DNA from: Acidimicrobiales bacterium
GTDB taxonomy: Bacteria > Actinomycetota > Acidimicrobiia > Acidimicrobiales > VFJN01
Assembly: GCA_036505485.1 (NCBI GenBank)
Contig: DASXTK010000310.1
Coordinates: forward strand, 4,999-68,998
Length of the DNA: 64,000 nt
Reading direction: 5' to 3'
Shown here: piece by piece, positions 17,956-51,196 of the stretch
Layout of the letters: each line of letters opens with the position of its first letter
Position numbering within the stretch: the first letter of the stretch is position 1
Notes under the pieces: model-generated
Told to the model about the DNA's origin: nothing
What the model saw: only the letters and a program-made list of their open reading frames with translations
Database searches by the model: none
Translations under genes and position numbers: made by a program

Positions 17956-18876
17956 ATGCGATTGGCCCGGGTCCTGGGTGCGATCGGACGTACCTGCATC
18001 ACCGCGGGCGTGCTGATCCTCCTCTTCGTCGCGTACCAGCTCTGGGGTACCGGCCTGCACGAGGCCCGGGCCCAGAGCGCGCTCGAGGACGAGTTCGCCG
18101 ACGACCTGGCCAGCGCCGGCGCCGCTTCGACCGACGGCACGGACGGGGTTCCCGGCGACAACGCCAACGCGCGGCCGGCCACCACCGTTCCGCCGTCTCC
18201 CCCGTCGCCCGACGAGGGTGGAGCGGTGGCCCACATCGTGATCCCCGCCATCGGCGTGGACAAGATCGTGGTGGAGGGCGTGACGGTCGACGACCTCAAG
18301 CGGGGACCCGGCCACTACCCCGACAGCCCGGTCCCCGGCCAGCCCGGCAACGCCGCCATCGCCGGCCACCGGACCACGTACGGGGCGCCGTTCAATCGCA
18401 TCGACGAGCTGTCCGAGGGCGACGAGATCCTGATCACGACCCTGCAAGGCTCGTTCCGCTACAAGGTCAGCGAGCAGCAGATCGTCAGCCCGGACCAGGT
18501 CGAGGTGCTCAACGACTTCGGCGACAACCGGCTCACGCTCACTGCCTGTAACCCCAAGTACTCGGCCCGCGAGCGCATCGTCATCGTGGCCAAGCTGGCC
18601 GAGGAACCGACGCCGGCACCGCCCACCACCGCACCCGCACCGTCCTCCGAGCCCGACCAGCCGGTCTCATTGGACGGCGGCCTGTCAGGCGAGCGGGCAT
18701 CGGCGTGGCCCGCGGTGTTGTTGGGCCTGGCTTGCGCCCTGATCTGGCTGGCCGCCTGGATCGCTACCAAGTTCACCAAGAAGATCGTTGCCTACGGCGT
18801 CGGCGGCCCGATCTTCTTCGTTGTCCTGTTCTTCTTCTACGAGAGCTTCTACCGCCTGTTGCCGGCCAACTTCTGA
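17956..18876 (+). CDS. srtE: Class E sortase with an extra C-terminal 2-TM extension
   Basis: AIAGHRTTYGAPF (His), LTLTACNPKYSARERIV (Cys, Arg). N-terminal TM helix plus two C-terminal TM helices, ending YRLLPANF. Confidence 0.85.
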   Translation: MRLARVLGAIGRTCITAGVLILLFVAYQLWGTGLHEARAQSALEDEFADDLASAGAASTDGTDGVPGDNANARPATTVPPSPPSPDEGGAVAHIVIPAIGVDKIVVEGVTVDDLKRGPGHYPDSPVPGQPGNAAIAGHRTTYGAPFNRIDELSEGDEILITTLQGSFRYKVSEQQIVSPDQVEVLNDFGDNRLTLTACNPKYSARERIVIVAKLAEEPTPAPPTTAPAPSSEPDQPVSLDGGLSGERASAWPAVLLGLACALIWLAAWIATKFTKKIVAYGVGGPIFFVVLFFFYESFYRLLPANF

Positions 18877-41047: not shown

Positions 41048-42016
41048 CTAGAACCAGGCTGGGAGTAATCGGGCCGAGGCTTCGGCGACGAGGACCGTGG
41101 CGACCACCAGGAGGGGTGCGCTCATGAGGTACGCGGAGCGGGGACGGGTGCGGCGATACAGGAGGACAGCGGCGGCCGCGGCGCACGCATAACCGAGGAC
41201 CGCGAGGAACACGGGAGCCAATGCGCTGCCATCACTGTCTCGGCCGTCCTGATCGGACGTACGACCGCCCTGCGGCGTGGGGTGGAAGGCGACGGTGTCC
41301 AACTTGGCCACCACGACCGTGGCCGGATTGGTCGCCCACGGCATCACCGAACTGGAAGTCACCAGGGTGAGCCGGTCGTCTTCGCTCGGTCCGAAGACCT
41401 CCTCGTCCCCTCGGGGAACATGGCGCTGGCCAACTCTGGTCACCTTGTAGAGAGATCGGCCCTGCGTGGTGATGACAACGATCTCGTCACCCCGACCGAG
41501 CTCGTCCAGTTGCGAGAACTGCCCGCCGAAGCCGGACTTGCGGCCCACGATCGCACTGTTGCCTGGCTGGCCCGGTCCAGCCGTACCAGGCACATGGCCG
41601 GGTCCCCGGCGGGTCTGCTGGGGTCCGACCCCTTCCACCACGACTTGCCGGAAATCGATGGCGTTGACCTCCACGATCGCCACCGGGTCTCCGACGCCTG
41701 GCGCCTCGGTCACCTCCTGGACCCCAGGGAGGCCGAAGGCCTCGTTCGCCGCCTTCTCGATCTCGGCCCGGTAGTCACTGAGAAGATCTCGCTGGTCGCG
41801 CTCCTCCAACATCGGACCCATCCCATAGACAACGAGGCCCACGCCGACGACGGTGATCAGCAGCCAGGCCGCGGCAACCAAACCGATACGTCGCGGCGTG
41901 ATGGGTGCGAGTCGCGACCGCCCGGCGGCGGACACATCGCGGGAAGGCTGGGCTTCGGAGGGGCCGATCCCCGCCGGCTCGGATCCCGCAACGTCTGGTT
42001 CGACGGCGACGGCCAT
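41048..42016 (-). CDS. Sortase E paralog lacking the catalytic His, Cys and Arg (pseudo-sortase)
   Basis: Aligns with the 17956 sortase (GPGH.P....PGQPGN.AI.G, DEL..GDEI, RLTL, VVAKL, C-terminal 2 TM, RLLPAWF). It has VGRKSGFG instead of AGHRTTYG and LTLVTSSS instead of LTLTACNP. ATGA-coupled to the upstream gene. Confidence 0.75.
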   Translation of the reverse strand: MAVAVEPDVAGSEPAGIGPSEAQPSRDVSAAGRSRLAPITPRRIGLVAAAWLLITVVGVGLVVYGMGPMLEERDQRDLLSDYRAEIEKAANEAFGLPGVQEVTEAPGVGDPVAIVEVNAIDFRQVVVEGVGPQQTRRGPGHVPGTAGPGQPGNSAIVGRKSGFGGQFSQLDELGRGDEIVVITTQGRSLYKVTRVGQRHVPRGDEEVFGPSEDDRLTLVTSSSVMPWATNPATVVVAKLDTVAFHPTPQGGRTSDQDGRDSDGSALAPVFLAVLGYACAAAAAVLLYRRTRPRSAYLMSAPLLVVATVLVAEASARLLPAWF

Positions 42017-44235
42017 CACCCGGTCACCTTCCGGACGCTTCGGCGTGGACGCATCCGTCGAAGTCCACGATCGGCGACCGATGCTCCCCGACGAGCCACG
42101 TTCCCAACGGCGGTCGGCATCTGATAGCCGGCGGTGGCCAGTGCCACCGCCGTGGTCAGAGCCACGATCAACAACAGCGCGGCGGGCGACCACAGGGTGT
42201 TGATAGCTCGGATCCCCGTAAGTCCAGGGAGCTTGACCTTGTCCTCCTTCGCGGCCTCGAGCGCTTCGTCGACGGTGTCGGGAGTCGCTGGACGAGTAGG
42301 GGTGTCCGGATTGGCGCTCGGGTCAGAGCGGTTCCCGAGCCCCGACCCTGATCCCGACCCGCTGCCGTTCGCCGGGGGACCATACGAGCTGCCTGGTGCA
42401 CCACCAGTGTTCTGTGTGGTTGGCGGCGTCGTAGGTGGCGGGGTGTGCGTGCAGGCGGGCGGGGAGGATCCGACCTGCGCCAACGCGTTGGCGGCATCGG
42501 TCTGAAGGTCGGTGGTCAAAGGCACGAGCCCGCCGTCCTCCAGGGGGAGCTGGCCCTGCCCCTCGGTGGTCACATACTCGAGCCAGGCGCCCAGTTGCTG
42601 TTGCGACCCCGTCCTCGGCGCACAGTTGGCGTCCACCAGAGGCTGGGCCGGCGCCATGGCGTACTCGACGTAGGTGAGCGGATATCCCGCAGTCGTGTTG
42701 GGGTCGGGAACCAACGTCCCGTCCTGCTGGTGCTGCATCTGCGGCACGGCCGCAGCCAACGTCTCCGCCGTCGGCGTGACCCACCCGCCGGTGTTCGCCG
42801 GATCCGGGATGCTCACCACCGTCAGGCCGAGAGCATTGGCCGTCGCAAGGTCGGTGAGGACGTAGTAAGTCCCTTGGGAGTACAGCTCCCGGTAGACGAT
42901 CCGGGCCAGGTCGGGTCGGCCGGTCTTGAGGTCGAGCTCACCGGTCATGTGCGGGGGGTCAGCAGCGTTGAAGTCTGTCTCGACACCCCGCGCCACGCCC
43001 GCTGCGCTCTTCCAGTCATCAGGTGCGAGCGTGTCGAACCGGGTGCTGGCGAACAGGGTCGTCGACTGCGGTCCGGTGAGCGCCAGCGCCGCACCGACGT
43101 TGCTGTTGAGGAGGTAGTTGAGACCGGGGATCTGGAGGTTGTTGGCCAACACCTCGTTGCTCTGATCGCTGAACACCAACGCCTGCTCCCATTGTCCGAA
43201 GAGAGTGGCCAGGTGCTGGTTGGTCAGCCGGAACTCTGAGTGGGGTTTGGGGAAGTCGGTCGGCCAAGACCCGTCGACCACCGGATAGCCACCGCCTACA
43301 GCCACGACGACGGCATTCAGTCCGATCGGCACCGGCACCATCGGACGCCGCGTAGGTGGATCGAACCCGGGCCGATAGCCAACGGCGCTGTAGGTGAGGT
43401 CGAACTCGCCGGCAGCGAAGGAGTTGAGTGCCGTCCCCTCCGGCGCGAAGAAGGCGCTCGTCGGGGGTGGGCTGTCGGTCGTCTGGCAGACATCCCGGGT
43501 CCAGGACAACCAGGCATCTTGGAGCCGATCAGGCATCGTGGAGGTGGCGACGTCCGGCGATTGGCCGTCGCAACCAGTGACACCTGAAGTCGGCCGGTAG
43601 CCCAGCACGGGTCCGGGCCGGACGTAACTCACCGGGTCGCTGATCCCGGTCTGGGTGTAGATCTGGTACACGAAGCGGCAGGGATCGTCGGGCCCACAGG
43701 TCATCGAATAGTCGACGCCACCCAGCCGCCAGTTCGCCGTTCCGACCCCCGGCCGCAGGATGGCGATTCCCCGTTGGCCATGCTCGGAGCCCTCGTCGGG
43801 GAACCGATGGAACCGGTCACCGTCCAGCGAGCTGTCGCCCTCCGAGAGGTGGGCGCCGATGGTGACGCAGTTGCCGTTGGTGAAGTCCGCCTCGGTGTAG
43901 GTGTAGGTCTCGTCGACCAGCCGGCAGGTGTAGACCCGCGAAGGAGTGCCGGCGTAGACGACGGCGCCCGTGCCCGCGACCGTCTGCACGTTGACCTCGA
44001 CGGTCTGACCGCTGACCAGATCATCGGACTCGCTGACCGCGACGGTGAACGGATCAGAGGTCTGGGCCGCGGACCCTTCGGGCTCCGCCACCCACACGAC
44101 GACGGTGAGCAGGAGCGAGAGCACGGGGATCACGCCGATCCAGCGGTGTCCGAGTACGTAGGTGCGAGTGCGATGGCCGATACGGGTCATCGGGCGGTGT
44201 CCCCCAGGGGCGCGAAGAAGGTACGACATTGTCAA
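42016..44235 (-). CDS. Large secreted/surface protein with a PstS-like (PBP_like_2) domain, a Pro/Thr/Gly-rich stalk and a C-terminal LPGLTG + TM + basic tail
   Basis: N-terminal TM/signal IGVIPVLSLLLTVVVWVA. PBP-like motifs PIGLNAVVVAVGGG and GYPLTYVEYAMAP. The tail reads KLPGLTG-IRAINT-LWSPAALLLIVALTTAVALATAG-...RRGASVADRGLRRMRPRR. Confidence 0.7.
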   Translation of the reverse strand: MTMSYLLRAPGGHRPMTRIGHRTRTYVLGHRWIGVIPVLSLLLTVVVWVAEPEGSAAQTSDPFTVAVSESDDLVSGQTVEVNVQTVAGTGAVVYAGTPSRVYTCRLVDETYTYTEADFTNGNCVTIGAHLSEGDSSLDGDRFHRFPDEGSEHGQRGIAILRPGVGTANWRLGGVDYSMTCGPDDPCRFVYQIYTQTGISDPVSYVRPGPVLGYRPTSGVTGCDGQSPDVATSTMPDRLQDAWLSWTRDVCQTTDSPPPTSAFFAPEGTALNSFAAGEFDLTYSAVGYRPGFDPPTRRPMVPVPIGLNAVVVAVGGGYPVVDGSWPTDFPKPHSEFRLTNQHLATLFGQWEQALVFSDQSNEVLANNLQIPGLNYLLNSNVGAALALTGPQSTTLFASTRFDTLAPDDWKSAAGVARGVETDFNAADPPHMTGELDLKTGRPDLARIVYRELYSQGTYYVLTDLATANALGLTVVSIPDPANTGGWVTPTAETLAAAVPQMQHQQDGTLVPDPNTTAGYPLTYVEYAMAPAQPLVDANCAPRTGSQQQLGAWLEYVTTEGQGQLPLEDGGLVPLTTDLQTDAANALAQVGSSPPACTHTPPPTTPPTTQNTGGAPGSSYGPPANGSGSGSGSGLGNRSDPSANPDTPTRPATPDTVDEALEAAKEDKVKLPGLTGIRAINTLWSPAALLLIVALTTAVALATAGYQMPTAVGNVARRGASVADRGLRRMRPRRSVRKVTG

Positions 44236-44387
44236 TGGGCCTTTTTCTCATGCCCAGGTGAACTCGATGGGACGCGGACAACCACAAGGGATGAACAGTC
44301 GTGACGCGCCGTCGCCGGCCCCGGAAGCACCGGGACCGGCGGCGGACAGTGCACTTGGCGTGGGCTACTGGATCGAGCCGGTAGGCG

Positions 44388-45638
44388 TCAGGGCGTCCAC
44401 ATCCGGCAGTGGGTGCCCGGGATGTTGTGGGTCGGGTTGGCGGTGGCGTCCAGCGGACCGAAGCCGAAGTCGATCAACGTGCTGGCCTTGTCGCCGTTGC
44501 ACAGCGGGCTCTTGACCACGGGCGAGGCCACGTTGTCGAAGCCCACGAACCGCTTCGCAGCCTTGTAGCTGTTCGCACCGGTCGTGTTGTCGATGACGTT
44601 CCACACGTACCGCACTGCGGGATACGCCGGCGTCGGGTCGTTCAAGGGAACGTTGCCCTCGGCGACCGGACCGTTGGGGTCCGACGCGGTCGGGGTGCGC
44701 GGCTCCCACTTGCCGCCGACCAAACGAACCGGAATCTCGAACCCGAGTGTGGGCTCAGATGTGTCGTCCAAGTCGAGGTACGCCTGGCCGAAGCGGTCAT
44801 CGGTGGTCGTGCCCCGGGCCATCGACACCCAGTTGCCCACCGAGTACGGCTCCACTGCGGTCTGCTCGTCACCGTTGTTGTGGACCGTGAGACCAGTGTT
44901 CTCCTGGGTTTGGTTGATCGGGCACGAGACGATGGTGTTGGGGTCGAAGCCGAGCATGGCGACGAACGACTGGAACGTGCCCGAGCCGGTCTGGGGCGAG
45001 TAGCGCTCGATGGGGCCTGCAGTCCCGCCGAGTTGGCTCCAGTTGGTGATGGTGCAGTTGAAGATGCCCCGCACCTCGTTCAGGGTGATGTCATGGTCGG
45101 CCGGGATGTGTGAGCTGGCCGTGGTGATCCCGAGAGTGTCGAGACCGAAGGCGTAGTACTCGAACGACGCCAGGTCGGTGCCGGGAACCGTGCCGACGGC
45201 ACGGGGTGGCCCCGACGACCGGGCGATGTCGATGCACCCATCGCCGGCCTGCACCGACAGGAGCAGGGCGTTGCGCCCGGCGCTGGAGCCGTTGGGCCGG
45301 AGTACCTCACCAGCGACAGAAGTTGGGGTCCGATACGTCCGGGTGGGGCAGGGGGTGACGCCGTCGCTGGGGACCGTGTGGCCGGGGTCCGGCGTGACCA
45401 GCGAGATGGCCAACACGTTCTGGTTATCGTCCGCGTCGGGGTTGTACCCGGTGTCGGCGTTGTACTGGGCGGCCAGAGCCTTCATCACGTCCTGCGTGGT
45501 GTCCGAGCCGGCCATGGTGATCGACTGCTTGACGCCGTCATTGGTGCCACACGCTGACGCCAGGGCCGAGATCGCGAACAGCACCGCAGCACTCCCCACG
45601 ACCCCGCGCGCTCGGCGGGCGCTGAATGATCCAAGCAT
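44388..45638 (-). CDS. PstS-like periplasmic-binding-fold lipoprotein
   Basis: Signal VLFAISALASACGTNDG. ITMAGSDTTQDV, NGSSAGRNALL, ITLNEVRGIFNCTITNWSQLGG, SPQTGSGTFQSF. Confidence 0.75.
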   Translation of the reverse strand: MLGSFSARRARGVVGSAAVLFAISALASACGTNDGVKQSITMAGSDTTQDVMKALAAQYNADTGYNPDADDNQNVLAISLVTPDPGHTVPSDGVTPCPTRTYRTPTSVAGEVLRPNGSSAGRNALLLSVQAGDGCIDIARSSGPPRAVGTVPGTDLASFEYYAFGLDTLGITTASSHIPADHDITLNEVRGIFNCTITNWSQLGGTAGPIERYSPQTGSGTFQSFVAMLGFDPNTIVSCPINQTQENTGLTVHNNGDEQTAVEPYSVGNWVSMARGTTTDDRFGQAYLDLDDTSEPTLGFEIPVRLVGGKWEPRTPTASDPNGPVAEGNVPLNDPTPAYPAVRYVWNVIDNTTGANSYKAAKRFVGFDNVASPVVKSPLCNGDKASTLIDFGFGPLDATANPTHNIPGTHCRMWTP

Positions 45639-45840
45639 TCTGATTCTGATCCTCCTGAGCCCCAGGGGCTCAAAGTCGGTGTCGTGCACACATCTCTGCG
45701 TTGCACGCGCCCGTCCCCCGGACGCGGCCTCGTTCTGGCACACGAAGATGAACGCCCCGGGTGGTCTCGGGAGAACCGGCGATGAAGGTCCCAAGCGCAC
45801 TCGGTGAAATCCTCGGCCGTTCGCCTGGCGGGCCCCGAGA

Positions 45841-45873
45841 GTTCCGTTTCCGTTCGTTCTGCGGGCGTTGCCT
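45841..45873 (+). promoter_or_regulatory. Direct GTTC-type repeats with 11-nt phasing upstream of pstC (PHO-box-like)
   Basis: GTTCCGTTTCC GTTCGTTCTGC GGGCGTTGCCT, read directly, 32-64 nt upstream of ATG45905. Confidence 0.3.
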
Positions 45874-45904
45874 AGCTCGAGAGGCGTTGGTTTGATGCAC
45901 GCCG

Positions 45905-46885
45905 ATGGCAACGAGCCCCCCGCTCTTGCGCGCCCGGAAGCGTCGCGAGGTCACCGACGAGCCGACGCGGACCGACCGCTTTTTCGGCTACTTCACGAGT
46001 GCTGCGGGTCTAACCGTCCTCGCCCTGATGGTGCTCGTCGGGTTGTTCCTGTTCCTCCGGGCTCGCGACGCCTTCGACGTCATGGGCACCAAGTTCTTCA
46101 CCACCGTCGAGTGGAAACCCGACGATGCGTCGCCGAGCTTCGGAGTCCGGGGCCTCGTCACCGGAACCGTGCTGGTCGGGCTGATCGCGTTCGTGATCGC
46201 GGTGCCGGTGGGCACCTGCGCCGGCCTGTTCATCACCGAGTTCGCCTCGCCGCGTTGGCGCAGCGTGCTGACCTCGCTGGTCGATCTGCTGGCCGCCATT
46301 CCCAGCCTGCTCTATGGGCTGTGGGGACTGGTGTTCCTCCAGGACAAGATCGCGCCGCTGTCGGCCTGGTTGGCTCGGCACTTCGATTGGATCCCGCTGT
46401 TCCGGGTCAACGAGAACCCCGACTACATCCAGACCATGTTCATCGCTGGCGTCGTCGTCTCGCTGATGGTGATCCCCATCGTCGCCTCGATCACCCGGGA
46501 GGTGTTCTCCCAGACGCCCCCGGGCGAGAAGGAGGCGGCGCTCGCTCTGGGCGGCACCCGGTGGGGGATGGTACGACGGGTGGTGATCCCCTATGGCCGG
46601 GGTGGGATCGTCGGAGCGTCGATGCTCGGCCTCGGCCGAGCCCTGGGCGAGACCATCGCCGTGTTCCTACTCCTCCCTCAGGTGCCGGAGGAGACCATCC
46701 GCGTGCTGCAGCACGGAGGTGCGACCGTGTCGGGCTTCATCGTGCAGCGAGCCGGCGGTAGCGAGCTCAACATCTCGGGATTGATGGGCGCGGGCCTGAT
46801 GCTGTTCATCATGACGCTCACCACCAACCTGATTGCCTCCACCGTCATCGCCCGGAGCCGTTCCGGCGCGGGGGTCGAGCTGTAG
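45905..46885 (+). CDS. pstC: Phosphate ABC transporter permease PstC
   Basis: EFASPRWRSVLTSLVDLLAAIPSLLYGLWG. EAA loop REVFSQTPPGEKEAALALGGTRW. Confidence 0.9.
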   Translation: MATSPPLLRARKRREVTDEPTRTDRFFGYFTSAAGLTVLALMVLVGLFLFLRARDAFDVMGTKFFTTVEWKPDDASPSFGVRGLVTGTVLVGLIAFVIAVPVGTCAGLFITEFASPRWRSVLTSLVDLLAAIPSLLYGLWGLVFLQDKIAPLSAWLARHFDWIPLFRVNENPDYIQTMFIAGVVVSLMVIPIVASITREVFSQTPPGEKEAALALGGTRWGMVRRVVIPYGRGGIVGASMLGLGRALGETIAVFLLLPQVPEETIRVLQHGGATVSGFIVQRAGGSELNISGLMGAGLMLFIMTLTTNLIASTVIARSRSGAGVEL

Positions 46886-48054
46886 TGGCCACGCCGCTGC
46901 TCGCCCCCCCTCGATCCGCCCCGACCCCAGTGGCCGGGCGGGCCCGGCGCCGGCCGAGCGAACTGACCGCCACCGACATCGGCACCATCGTCGGCTGCGC
47001 CCTGAGTGCCATCGCGCTCACCTGGTTGATCTTCGCCCGTCTGACCGAAGGCGTGGGCTGGTTCGGCTTCGGCGTGGTCGCCTACCTCACCTTCGTGGTG
47101 CTCTTCGCGCTGGTCACGACCGACCGGCTCGGCCGCCTCGTTGCGGCGGACCGTGTGGCAACGGTTCTGGTCTCAACCGGAGCGGTGTTGCTGATGGTGC
47201 CTCTCGGGTTCCTGATCGTCTACATCGTCGCCAAAGGCCTCCCCCACCTACGCCCCAACTTCTTCACCGAGGACCAACGGGGGGTCAGCACCGCCGACCC
47301 ATCAACGGCGGGCGGAGGATCCCACGCCATCGTGGGGAGCCTCGAACAGGTTGCCCTGGCCCTCGCCTTCACGGTGCCTCTGGGTCTCACCACCGCCGTC
47401 TTCCTCAACGAGACCCGCAGCCGGTTCCGGCGGCCCATCCGCATCCTGGTCGACGCCATGAGCGGCCTGCCGTCGATCGTGGCGGGCCTGTTCATCTATG
47501 CCGTCTTCGTCATCCCCTACGCCGACTCGGTCAAGGTGTTCGGGCTGCACATCTTCGGATACAACGGGCTGCTGGCCGCCTTGGCGCTGTCGCTGGTCAT
47601 GACCCCCACCATCACCCGCACGTTCGAGCTGGTGCTGCGGCTGGTACCCGACGGGCTGCGCGAGGCCAGCCTCGCGCTCGGCGCCTCTCGGGCCCGCACC
47701 GTGTGGTCGGTCGTGCTCCCCACCGCGCGCAGCGGGGCCACGACCGCCATAGTGCTCGGCATCGCACGGGCAGTCGGTGAGACGGCACCGCTGTTGTTCA
47801 CGGCGTTCGGACAGACGCTGATGAACACGAACCCTCTGGACGACCCCCAGGAAAGCCTCCCCTTGTTCGTGTACCGCTACATCCGCGAACCGAACGCGGA
47901 GATCAGGGAACGCGGCTTCGTCGGCGCCACCGTGCTCCTGCTCATCGTGCTCAGCCTCTTCGCCGTGGCCCGCTACATCGGACGGGATCGTTCGCGTCAA
48001 AAGACCCGCCGGATCACACCGATCTTCGCCCGCTCCCAGGAGAGCAGCACATGA
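46885..48054 (+). CDS. pstA: Phosphate ABC transporter permease PstA
   Basis: [16 protein letters not shown] and [24 protein letters not shown] start overlaps the pstC stop. Confidence 0.9.
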
Positions 48055-48977
48055 CGGACTTCGGCCAGCAGCCGGTGACGACCGCGGCCATACCTCCCCC
48101 ACCTCCTCCGCCTCCTCCCGGCGCCAATGGTGACACCGAGCAGCTCGGCCTTGGCGATCAGCTGGCGCCCTCCCGGCCGGTCGCGCTGACCGGTGGCCCG
48201 CCGCCCGGAGCCGCCACCATCGTGACCCGAGACGCCTGCGCCTGGTTCGGTGAGAACTTGGTGCTCGAAGGCGTGGATCTCACCATGCCCCGCGGTGAGG
48301 TCACCGCGCTGATCGGCCCGTCGGGTTGCGGCAAATCGACCTTCCTACGCTTGCTCAACCGCATGCACGAGCTCGTGCCCGGAGCCAGTCTGGCCGGCGA
48401 GGTGCTGCTCGACGGTGAGGACATCTACCGCTACGGCATGCGGGCCCAGCAGGTCCGGCTGCGCATCGGCATGGTGTTCCAGAAGCCGAACCCGTTCCCG
48501 GCCATGAGCATCCGCGACAACGTGCTGTCCGGCCTGAAGCTGGCCCGCGTCGGTTGCTCCGACAAGAAGGCGCTGGTGGAGCGGTCGCTGCGCCGGGCCG
48601 GATTGTGGCGTGAGGTGCGTGATCGTCTGGGTGATCCGGGCGGCGCCTTGTCGGGGGGTCAGCAACAGCGGCTCTGCATCGCCCGAGCGTTGGCCGTCCA
48701 GCCCAACGTCCTGCTGATGGACGAGCCCTGCTCGGCCCTTGACCCCACCTCGACCCGCGTGATCGAGGACACCATCGCTGAACTGCGTGATGCGGTCACG
48801 GTGATCATCGTGACCCACAACATGCAACAGGCGCAGCGGGTGTCGGACCGCTGCGCCTTCTTCCTCGCAGCTGAGAACGAACCCGGCCGGGTGATCGAGT
48901 GGGGCCCGACCGACAAGATGTTCTCCGACCCCGACGACGACCGGACCTTGGCCTATGTCGAAGGGCGGTTCGGCTGA
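48051..48977 (+). CDS. pstB: Phosphate ABC transporter ATPase PstB (with a ~50-aa Pro-rich N-terminal extension if ATG48051 is used)
   Basis: [48 protein letters not shown]. Confidence 0.9.
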
Positions 48978-50548: not shown

Positions 50549-51196
50549 TCAGGCCTTGGCGGGTACGTCGAGACTGGCGAGGAGGGCTCGGACTCTGTTG
50601 CCGATGAGGTCGCGGATGGGGCGGACGGCGTCGAGGCTCTGGCCGGCGGGGTCGTCCAGCTCCCAGTCTTCGTAACGTTTGCCCAGGAAGATGGGGCAGG
50701 CGTCGCCACAGCCCATGGTGACCACCACGTCGGCGGCGCGGATGATCTCGTCGGTCCAGGGCTTGGGGAACTCCTGGGCGATGTCGATGCCGACCTCGCG
50801 CATGGCGGCGACGGCAGCGGGGTTGATCTCGCTGCCGGGTTCCGAGCCACCGGACCAGGCGGTGGCTTTGCCGCCGGCGAGGTGGTTGAACCAGCCCAGT
50901 GCCATCTGGGAACGGCCGGCGTTGTGGACGCACAGGAACAGCACGATCGGGATGCCGTCGTCATGTTTGCCTTCGACTTTGGCAAGGGCCGTGAGGCGTT
51001 GCCGAGCGAAGCGCTCCCCGAGCAGCGACAGGAAGTTGACGAAGCTGGCCTTGCCCGCGAACTGGTCGTAGCTGGTCTCCAAGAACAGCTGGATGGTCTC
51101 AGTCGAGAACGTGCCCTCGAACTCCTGGTGCAGGTGGTTGGCTGCCGTCCGCAGGGCGAGGTGTTGGTCGGGGCTCAGAGAGTTGAGATCGGGCAT
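50549..51196 (-). CDS. arsC: Arsenate reductase (LMW-PTP / thioredoxin-coupled type) with an N-terminal helical domain
   Basis: LCVHNAGRSQMA (CX5R-S loop) and VVTMGCGDACP. Confidence 0.85.
   Translation of the reverse strand: MPDLNSLSPDQHLALRTAANHLHQEFEGTFSTETIQLFLETSYDQFAGKASFVNFLSLLGERFARQRLTALAKVEGKHDDGIPIVLFLCVHNAGRSQMALGWFNHLAGGKATAWSGGSEPGSEINPAAVAAMREVGIDIAQEFPKPWTDEIIRAADVVVTMGCGDACPIFLGKRYEDWELDDPAGQSLDAVRPIRDLIGNRVRALLASLDVPAKA

Follow-up and report, generated by a model that had tools for sequence, protein, structure and literature searches.

The subject of this analysis is a gene for a 322-residue protein at positions 41048-42016 on the minus strand of a 64,000-nucleotide (nt) stretch of contig DASXTK010000310.1 (assembly GCA_036505485.1, positions 4,999 to 68,998) from an Acidimicrobiales bacterium; the whole of this stretch is referred to below as the window, and the gene and its product as the target. 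Sortases are treated as obligate cysteine transpeptidases, and the target is a member of the sortase superfamily, by fold and by profile, in which the catalytic His, Cys and Arg are all replaced, which scores below the class E cutoff and which lacks the tyrosine characteristic of class E. The comparisons described here show that it belongs to a large and old clade without the catalytic cysteine that is under strong selection, and that is found in soil Acidimicrobiia and in the cultivable genera Amycolatopsis and Actinomadura. The adjoining gene encodes a second protein, the partner (42016-44235), with a C-terminal signal of the sorting type. The reading that we favour, with somewhat better than even confidence, is that the non-catalytic sortase fold clamps the juxtamembrane signal of this partner and holds its PstS-like domain at the cell surface beside a Pst-type importer.

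The assignment of the target to the sortase superfamily is supported by profile, paralog and structural comparisons. The protein matches the Pfam Sortase profile PF04203 at 63.5 bits (E 2e-17, cutoff 26.6), where an intact class E sortase encoded at 17956-18876 of the window scores 121 bits; against the NCBIfam class E sortase model NF033747 it reaches 73.3 bits, under the cutoff of 160, and the intact sortase reaches 182.8. BLASTP aligns the two proteins at 36% identity (E 2e-30) in an alignment that extends across their C-terminal helices to the ends RLLPAWF and RLLPANF, in agreement with the initial annotation of the window, made from its letters without database searches, which had described the target as a sortase homolog and a paralog of the intact gene. 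The AlphaFold model of the target (predicted local distance difference test, pLDDT, 78) contains an N-terminal membrane helix, a second helix, an eight-stranded barrel at residues 111-239 and two C-terminal membrane helices. The structures that Foldseek ranks first for it are sortase D of C. perfringens and two class E sortases, from S. avermitilis and T. fusca (E ~1e-10), and sortases of classes D, E, C and A are matched at E 1e-8 to 1e-11.

The catalytic columns concur between the MAFFT and hmmalign alignments of the family. Arg159 lies in IVGRKSG, and Ser221 lies in LTLVTSSS where sortases carry TLxTC. When the target is aligned with solved sortases by HMMER, Arg159 falls at the catalytic His of both C. 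diphtheriae SrtF and S. avermitilis SrtE, and the canonical paralog matches its own His, Cys and Arg to those of T. fusca SrtE, S. avermitilis SrtE and C. perfringens SrtD. The substitutions of His by Arg (codon CGC) and of Cys by Ser (codon TCC) that had been reported from the letters are thereby confirmed on the minus strand. The canonical Arg, which had been reported as absent, is indeed missing: its column, the second R of ARERIVIVA in the paralog, corresponds to Ala232 in the TNPATVVVA of the target in both the paralog and the solved-structure alignments. Many relatives carry an Arg one residue ahead of this column, and in the clade of the window the residue there is Pro. A catalytic Cys relocated to another part of the target was considered and rejected, because the only Cys, C278, is an unconserved residue within a membrane helix and the ectodomain is free of cysteine; the only other conserved His, H141 of GPGH, is also found in active class E sortases. 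Thiol chemistry is excluded for this protein, judging by its sequence. That the target is non-catalytic, as had been proposed, is what we infer from these replacements, and a reaction based on Ser or Thr is the form in which activity could survive; it is weighed below.

In public records the relatives of the target are named “class E sortase” or “sortase A”. With its three catalytic residues and the class E tyrosine replaced and its score below the class E cutoff, the target should not be filed as a class E sortase.

The replaced residues are characteristic of an entire family. A protein database search with the target returned 570 homologs, the best 120 of which all have Arg at the His column, and the replaced triad is conserved in 120 metagenomic homologs. 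When one genome of each species was scanned, 171 species proved to have relatives, from which 80 loci were kept for locus counts; these come from metagenome-assembled genomes (MAGs) of Acidimicrobiales, Microthrixaceae and Iamiaceae and from cultured Amycolatopsis, Actinomadura, Spirillospora and Herbihabitans, and counts out of 81 add the sequence of the window to them. The His column is Arg in 80 of 80 loci (81/81 with the window), the Cys column is Ser in 77 of 80 (78/81, the remainder being Thr in two sequences and Ala in one, with no Cys in any of the 81), and the catalytic Arg column is Ala in 79 of 80 (80/81). The codons vary from locus to locus, Arg being encoded by CGC, CGG, CGT, CGA and AGG and Ser by both TCN and AGC. 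The ratio of nonsynonymous to synonymous substitution rates (dN/dS), computed by the Nei-Gojobori method, is 0.04-0.30 in close Amycolatopsis pairs; the calculation was restricted to close pairs (dS 0.12-0.30, within a range of 0.1-0.3) because synonymous sites saturate in this set with its high GC content at third codon positions, which makes the all-pair median of 0.55 unreliable.

Conservation is highest in the barrel, where it extends to the three replaced positions and to the loops that surround the groove, and the old active-site region is therefore still used. The initial annotation had regarded the gene as retained rather than decaying, and this view is upheld by the conservation of the replacements in 80 loci and two classes, by the dN/dS values, by the intact frame and by the predicted fold. 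It had also pointed out that the first two codons are each a single nucleotide away from the canonical ones; this is true, but it has no bearing on the matter, since the cysteine-less family is old and widespread and is not a recent paralog. One locus, L065 (JAGWYK010000057.1), is labelled as an Acidobacteria MAG while all others are from Actinomycetota, possibly as a result of mis-binning or horizontal transfer.

The family is surrounded by a wider clade, which was examined by comparing the family profile with 1.84 billion cluster representatives. There were 302 matches at E <= 1e-30, and the best 150 of these, each scoring at least 152 bits, were examined residue by residue; none has Cys at the catalytic column, and the intact sortase of the window, at 121 bits, scores below all of them. 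The first ~90 representatives form the tight family, with Arg, Ser and Ala at the catalytic columns and Val at the class E tyrosine position, about one in ten of them having Ala, Gly, Pro or Asn at the Cys column. More distant members retain the catalytic Arg, while their His column is filled by Arg, His or Ser and their Cys column by Ser, Ala or Thr: cluster P0258 reads His/Ala/Arg, and P0237, P0265 and P0270 read His/Ser/Arg. These combinations suggest that the triad was lost stepwise and that the cysteine went first. The context of distant members is similar: P0245 and P0254 are coupled by 4 nt to an upstream gene whose product ends in a membrane helix and a basic tail, while P0237, which adjoins a gene with a PBP_like_2 domain, is coupled to a small upstream protein that lacks such a helix. 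In P0230 (980 residues) a PstS-like domain and a long charged linker are fused to an Arg/Ser/Arg sortase variant through what appears to be a single membrane helix, an arrangement that, barring a further helix, would place one domain on each side of the membrane.

The adjacency of target and partner is universal. A partner homolog adjoins the sortase-like gene in all 77 loci with enough flanking sequence, and the other 3 of the 80 end at a contig edge just upstream. In the usual arrangement the partner lies immediately 5' on the same strand, and in the window the two genes are coupled, as had been noted: at the junction GGTGATGG the TGA of the upstream gene (42018-42016) overlaps the ATG of the target (42016-42014) by one base, or, if the alternative in-frame GTG at 42019 is the start, by four. 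Coupling was thus correctly recognized, but the literal ATGA that had been given for it is not present. Independent gene calls for two further loci (L082 and L083) give an overlap of 4 nt.

The two genes are also joined in nature. In at least 16 protein clusters, 600-1090 residues long, partner and sortase are fused in frame; the N-termini match the partner at E 1e-23 to 1e-67, and the order is partner, IPAFAG, membrane helix, a Gly/Ala-rich loop of 15-35 residues, the sortase anchor helix and the cysteine-less sortase domain. One of them, P0140, occurs on three contigs from at least two samples. Since the partner helix runs from outside to inside and the sortase anchor from inside to outside, the motif and the barrel are brought side by side on the outer face of the membrane. 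The initial annotation had already tied the target to the product of 42016-44235, and the universal adjacency, the natural fusions and the conserved signal-like motif in the partner's tail all bear this link out. Clusters P0132-P0169 include fusions of 940-1090 residues. At two loci (L087 8001-11246 and L088 4826-8071) a fusion is part of a larger gene cluster with two PBP_like_2 genes, an fn3 protein, an OmpR-type regulator, a glucosaminidase and several proteins without a Pfam match.

The C-terminus of the partner is, as read from its sequence, laid out as a cell-wall sorting signal, consisting of a motif, a helix of 19 residues and an Arg-rich tail, and the same layout is found in its homologs. 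In 57 partner tails, which were selected with Pro fixed at position 2 and Gly at position 6 of the motif, position 4 is Phe in 43, with near variants in most of the others; in an unbiased alignment of 66 sequences the motif Pro is at least 90% conserved within a linker that is otherwise unconserved, variable and rich in Pro, Thr, Gly and Ser. The helix ends in (T/S)(A/S)G(R/K)P, after which the basic tail begins. The motif, with the consensus [IL]PxFxG, is not of the LPXTG or LAXTG type, there being no conserved Thr-Gly in the family consensus, and none of the NCBIfam sorting-domain models matches any of three representative partner tails.

The central part of the partner (~residues 230-590) is less easily recognized. 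A Pfam scan of the protein gave no match, PBP_like_2 included, and the NCBIfam PstS model TIGR00975 gives E 0.002, or 17 bits against a cutoff of 205. By hhalign the partner aligns to the 530-residue PstS-like protein encoded in the window at E 1.9e-4 over 285 columns and has no match to the window's 507-residue PstS-like protein, and the partner profile matches PstS sequences in the PDB at E 2.4e-4. The top Foldseek matches of the partner model are all PstS proteins, namely M. tuberculosis PstS-1, a cyanophage PstS and the E. coli phosphate-binding protein (E ~1e-10, target TM-score 0.65-0.75). Model and profiles together point to a divergent PstS-type binding-protein domain. The pLDDT of the model is 53 because the underlying alignment is shallow: database searches with the single partner sequence and with an alignment of 7 sequences returned the same 7 proteins, low-complexity words having probably dominated them. 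The partner family conserves the cysteines C104, C123, C180, C186, C222, C250, C538 and C595, and these eight invariant residues pair by position as 104/123, 180/186, 222/250 and 538/595, which suggests four extracellular disulfides. About 25 nt upstream of the partner start is a single GTTCACC heptamer (44257-44263, minus strand) that resembles one unit of a Streptomyces PhoP box; no second repeat was seen by eye, so it is not evidence of Pho regulation.

Two further parts of the target bear on what it may do. The preference of class E sortases for Ala at position P3 of LAXTG comes from a conserved tyrosine of the beta3/beta4 loop (PMC5148588), which is Y128 in T. fusca SrtE and Y229 in S. 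coelicolor SrtE1. This residue maps to the Y of GPGHY in the intact sortase of the window, and in the cysteine-less family it is replaced by Val in 75 of 81 sequences (Val142 in the target), a change that, on sequence grounds, fits the conserved Pro of the partner motif. The other part is the C-terminal module of two membrane helices, which is common to the target, the intact paralog and the wider cysteine-less clade, and for which scans of family models gave nothing meaningful. Members of the wider clade (P0216-P0273 and loci L084-L086) end in such a two-helix module with the sequence ...E..RLLP(A/S)T(L/F). The terminal R-(L/F)-(L/F)-P-A-W is invariant in the Amycolatopsis loci as well, and the membrane-embedded Glu at position 312, which does not vary in the metagenomic alignment, gives way there to Leu, Ser or Thr (for instance in L019, L028 and L066). 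In the intact sortase the two extra helices occupy residues ~235-306 and end in YESFYRLLPANF. SafA, a small membrane protein with an extracellular FPW motif, guards a class E sortase against signal peptidase and, in Bifidobacterium dentium, forms a fusion with the C-terminus of the sortase (PMC9282373); by analogy, the C-terminal helices of the intact sortase may be a fused module of the same kind. The presence of the module in both active and cysteine-less paralogs means that it does not explain the loss of the triad.

The pair stands beside a pst-like locus. When neighbouring genes were scored by tblastn of the window proteins together with pre-called contigs, which was done because shadow ORFs (open reading frames) in the high-GC sequence spoiled de novo ORF clustering, genes of the pstC, pstA and PstS-like types were found within 10 kb in 58-67 of the 80 loci, Amycolatopsis included. 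The layout seen in the window, with the pair followed by the pst genes, recurs in other Acidimicrobiales contigs.

In the reading that we favour, the chemistry of a cysteine transpeptidase has been abandoned with the changes of His to Arg, Cys to Ser and Arg to Ala, and the protein has been kept as a dedicated one-to-one binder of its partner. The partner, once secreted, would be held in the membrane by its C-terminal helix, and the sortase-fold domain, standing beside it on the outer face, would grip the motif in the former substrate groove. With Val in place of the class E tyrosine the groove would accept Pro, and, with the side chains of Cys and Arg gone, there may be space for the aromatic residue of the motif. 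The pair would form a stable complex, realized as a single polypeptide in some lineages, which would keep the PstS-like domain exposed on the cell, where it would assist the PstCAB phosphate-type importer encoded next to the pair. A non-catalytic binder is favoured because one-to-one pairing and repeated fusions suit a binding module better than an enzyme with turnover, and because the Cys column tolerates non-nucleophilic residues even in members that keep His and Arg. Binding of the motif in the groove, the absence of cleavage and a role in phosphate uptake are the parts of this picture that we infer.

Several observations weigh against it. The Ser at the Cys position is 96% conserved, Thr is its commonest alternative and the T-L-x-T context is kept, as would be expected of a Ser/Thr nucleophile; the partner is built throughout like a protein destined for cleavage and attachment to the wall; and nothing in the proposal accounts for the Arg that invariably stands at the His position. 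The order of the two genes is reversed in 7 loci, where the partner lies 3' on the same strand, in most of them directly after the sortase-like gene. The PstS-fold model of the partner is of low confidence, and the stretch of the partner that would match the canonical phosphate-binding motif Arg-x3-Ser-Gly-Thr, as placed from the E. coli sequence, looks unconserved by eye in the hhalign output and the family alignment. Binding of the motif by the sortase-fold domain is itself proposed from patterns in the sequences.

The most serious alternative is that the target is still an enzyme, in which a Ser or Thr at the old Cys position acts as nucleophile and cleaves the partner at [IL]PxFxG, perhaps once per molecule and by self-processing in the fused forms, so that the PstS-like domain would be released or moved to the cell wall. 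The Cys column, with Ser in 78 and Thr in 2 of 81 sequences behind a preserved T-L-x-T and with both Ser codon families in use, is what such an enzyme would show, and the complete tripartite architecture of a sortase substrate in the partner, with a linker of the wall-spanning type, the His-Ser-Arg members of the wider clade, and the restriction of each enzyme to one adjacent or fused substrate, which suits slow single-turnover chemistry, all agree with it. Against this, no general base is left, His having become Arg in every member of the tight family, the Arg for oxyanion and substrate has become Ala, and in several independent clusters the nucleophile column is filled by Ala, Gly, Pro or Asn; P0258 has both His and Arg together with Ala at that column. 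The motif, moreover, conserves Pro, an aromatic residue and Gly, and no Thr-Gly scissile pair. In S. aureus SrtA replacement of the catalytic Cys abolishes activity. We therefore regard surviving enzymatic activity in some form as unlikely, and as less likely again the specific case of a working Ser/Thr sortase that acts a single time on its adjacent or fused partner, cutting at [IL]PxFxG and releasing the PstS-fold domain or attaching it to the wall; if this were true, it would add a new catalytic type to the sortase fold, along with a new sorting signal.

It is also conceivable, and in our estimate improbable to a somewhat greater degree than either form of the enzyme, that the target is a membrane scaffold or regulator in which the important part is not the groove of the barrel; a SafA-like module might, for example, organize PstCA, the partner helix or a true sortase, with the barrel serving as a spacer. 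The conserved C-terminal helices and LPAW end, shared with the active paralog, would find a use in such a protein, as would the conserved cytoplasmic motifs of both proteins, (T/S)AG(R/K)P in the partner and TPRR and LYRRxRPRSAY in the sortase-like protein, and there is the precedent of SafA, which with its FPW motif protects a class E sortase and is fused to it in Bifidobacterium dentium (PMC9282373). This account leaves unexplained why the barrel is the most conserved region, groove loops and replaced positions included, and why the gene is linked to the partner rather than to the true sortase 23 kb away in the window; nor does any family model match the C-terminal module. That the gene is a broken sortase, decaying or confined to one strain, or that its sequence is in error, would be suggested by the single-nucleotide distance of the first two changes from canonical codons, but the comparisons excluded this: the same residues are encoded by varied codons in 80 loci from different genera and two classes, the frames are intact, dN/dS is well below 1 and Cys is absent from the best 150 of the 302 cluster representatives. 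The orthologs contradict a strain-specific lesion, and the probability of this explanation is negligible.

Features of the target, the partner, the pst-like locus and the intact sortase used for comparison (window coordinates; aa, amino acids)
Feature	Position	Strand	Evidence and remarks
Cysteine-less sortase-fold protein (target), 322 aa	41048..42016	-	ATG at 42016, stop 41048-41050
N-terminal membrane anchor helix, residues 41-65	41822..41896	-	AlphaFold model; W51 invariant, L61 and V62 nearly invariant in alignment
Sortase beta-barrel domain, residues 111-239	41300..41686	-	Model strands; Pfam match at residues 116-240
Val142 at class E specificity tyrosine position (GPGH-Y to GPGH-V)	41591..41593	-	Val in 75/81 sequences
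Arg159 (codon CGC) for catalytic His	41540..41542	-	Arg 81/81; aligns with His of solved sortases
Ser221 (codon TCC) for catalytic Cys in kept T-L-x-T-[C] motif	41354..41356	-	Ser 78, Thr 2, Ala 1 of 81
Ala232 codon for catalytic Arg	41321..41323	-	Ala 80/81; column from RIVIVAKL/ATVVVAKL alignment
Two C-terminal membrane helices (residues 263-289, 292-317) and extracellular RLLPAWF end	41051..41230	-	Model; P319 and W321 invariant
Partner, 739 aa: signal/anchor, beta-rich N-domain, PstS-like domain, low-complexity linker, C-terminal signal	42016..44235	-	TTG at 44235; ATG at 44229
Predicted PstS-like (type II binding-protein) domain of partner, ~residues 230-590	42466..43548	-	Foldseek, hhalign and profile matches
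Juxtamembrane motif LPGLTG (consensus [IL]-P-x-F-x-G)	42214..42231	-	Homolog tails and alignment
Partner C-terminal membrane helix AALLLIVALTTAVALATAG	42127..42183	-	Hydrophobic 19-mer, mean Kyte-Doolittle 2.2
Partner basic cytoplasmic tail, Arg-rich	42019..42126	-	Read from sequence; basic tails across homologs
PstS-family binding protein, 507 aa as ORF	44388..45911	-	Pfam PBP_like_2 E 2e-12; NCBIfam PstS-family subfamily E 2.5e-11; homolog within 10 kb in 67/80 loci
pstC-type permease, divergent	45905..46885	+	TIGR02138 256.7 bits, cutoff 196; homolog in 58/80 loci
pstA-type permease	46885..48054	+	TIGR00974 241 bits, cutoff 193; homolog in 59/80 loci
pstB-type ATPase	48051..48977	+	TIGR00972 322.6 bits, just under cutoff of 343; Pfam ABC_tran
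Second PstS-like binding protein, 530 aa	48955..50547	+	PBP_like_2 E 5e-27; TIGR00975 165 bits, cutoff 205; homolog in 62/80 loci
Intact class E sortase paralog (comparison only, outside the module)	17956..18876	+	NF033747 182.8 bits, cutoff 160; His/Cys/Arg and class E Tyr present

Taken as ORFs, the two PstS-like binding proteins of the pst-like locus are of unusual length, and neither reaches the NCBIfam PstS cutoffs, while PstC and PstA score above theirs. The start of the PstS-family gene at 44388-45911 probably lies near 45638, at MLGSFSARRARG...ALASAC, because at its listed start the ORF of 507 residues overlaps pstC. A gene for an ArsC-type low-molecular-weight phosphatase or arsenate reductase (50549-51196, minus strand) abuts the locus, and at another locus (L081, 16665-21074) an arsenic-resistance set, with an ACR3-type SBF gene, an ArsR-type helix-turn-helix gene and two LMWPc genes, lies just downstream. 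The presence of arsenic genes beside the pst-like locus raises the question of whether the transporter takes up arsenate besides phosphate.

In the literature and in the family models no description was found of a cysteine-less sortase family, of an [IL]PxFxG signal or of a link between sortase homologs and Pst loci; a study of five sortases in A. missouriensis was considered and proved irrelevant to the cysteine-less family. If the target binds the signal without cutting it, the clade would be, as far as could be found, the first family of sortase pseudoenzymes, a sorting enzyme having been turned into a signal receptor, whereas if it is an enzyme it would represent a new sortase chemistry. 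On either account a widespread and uncharacterised gene pair acquires a testable function and an annotation error is corrected, and the data suggest an accessory to phosphate uptake in actinobacteria that has so far gone unrecognised. Amycolatopsis is genetically tractable, so the question can be put to a direct test.

Among known systems, the housekeeping class E sortases that recognize LAXTG (S. coelicolor SrtE1, T. fusca SrtE and A. oris SrtA) are the best-matching family by sequence and by fold. Like them, the target has an N-terminal anchor, a helix and an eight-stranded barrel, together with the blocks RGPGH, PGQPGN, GDEI and T-L-x-T. Unlike them, it has Arg, Ser and Ala for His, Cys and Arg and Val for the tyrosine, and it reaches less than half of the NCBIfam cutoff; its cognate signal would be [IL]PxFxG rather than LAXTG, and it has one dedicated and sometimes fused partner where they have many substrates. 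Dedicated pairs of a sortase and its target, such as the class GN “marine” sortases (TIGR03784) and the class C sortases with their pilins, likewise place one gene of the sortase family beside one protein with a tripartite signal, but these sortases keep the Cys-His-Arg triad and cleave their target, while the clade described here has no triad and includes in-frame fusions.

Class C sortases possess a “lid”, in which a Pro-aromatic motif occupies the active site as a pseudo-substrate. The partner motif bears a general resemblance to this lid, in that both are Pro-aromatic and both may occupy the groove without being cleaved; the lid, however, is part of the enzyme and regulates its active site, whereas in the present pair the motif belongs to the partner, and the site is inactive. 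A comparable analogy may be drawn with SafA, where a membrane helix followed by a short extracellular Pro-Trp motif is tied to a sortase of class E type: the target ends in R-[LF]-[LF]-P-A-W. The motifs differ, being FPW in SafA and (L/F)PAW in the C-terminal module of the target. On the side of the partner, the PstS proteins (M. tuberculosis PstS-1 and the E. coli phosphate-binding protein) supply the fold that the model of the central domain matches, and the locus contains PstC, PstA, PstB and two more PstS-like proteins. Compared with PstS the partner is twice as long, has a C-terminal helix rather than a lipid as its anchor, possesses in addition a beta domain at its N-terminus and a set of eight conserved cysteines, and falls far short of the PstS family cutoffs.

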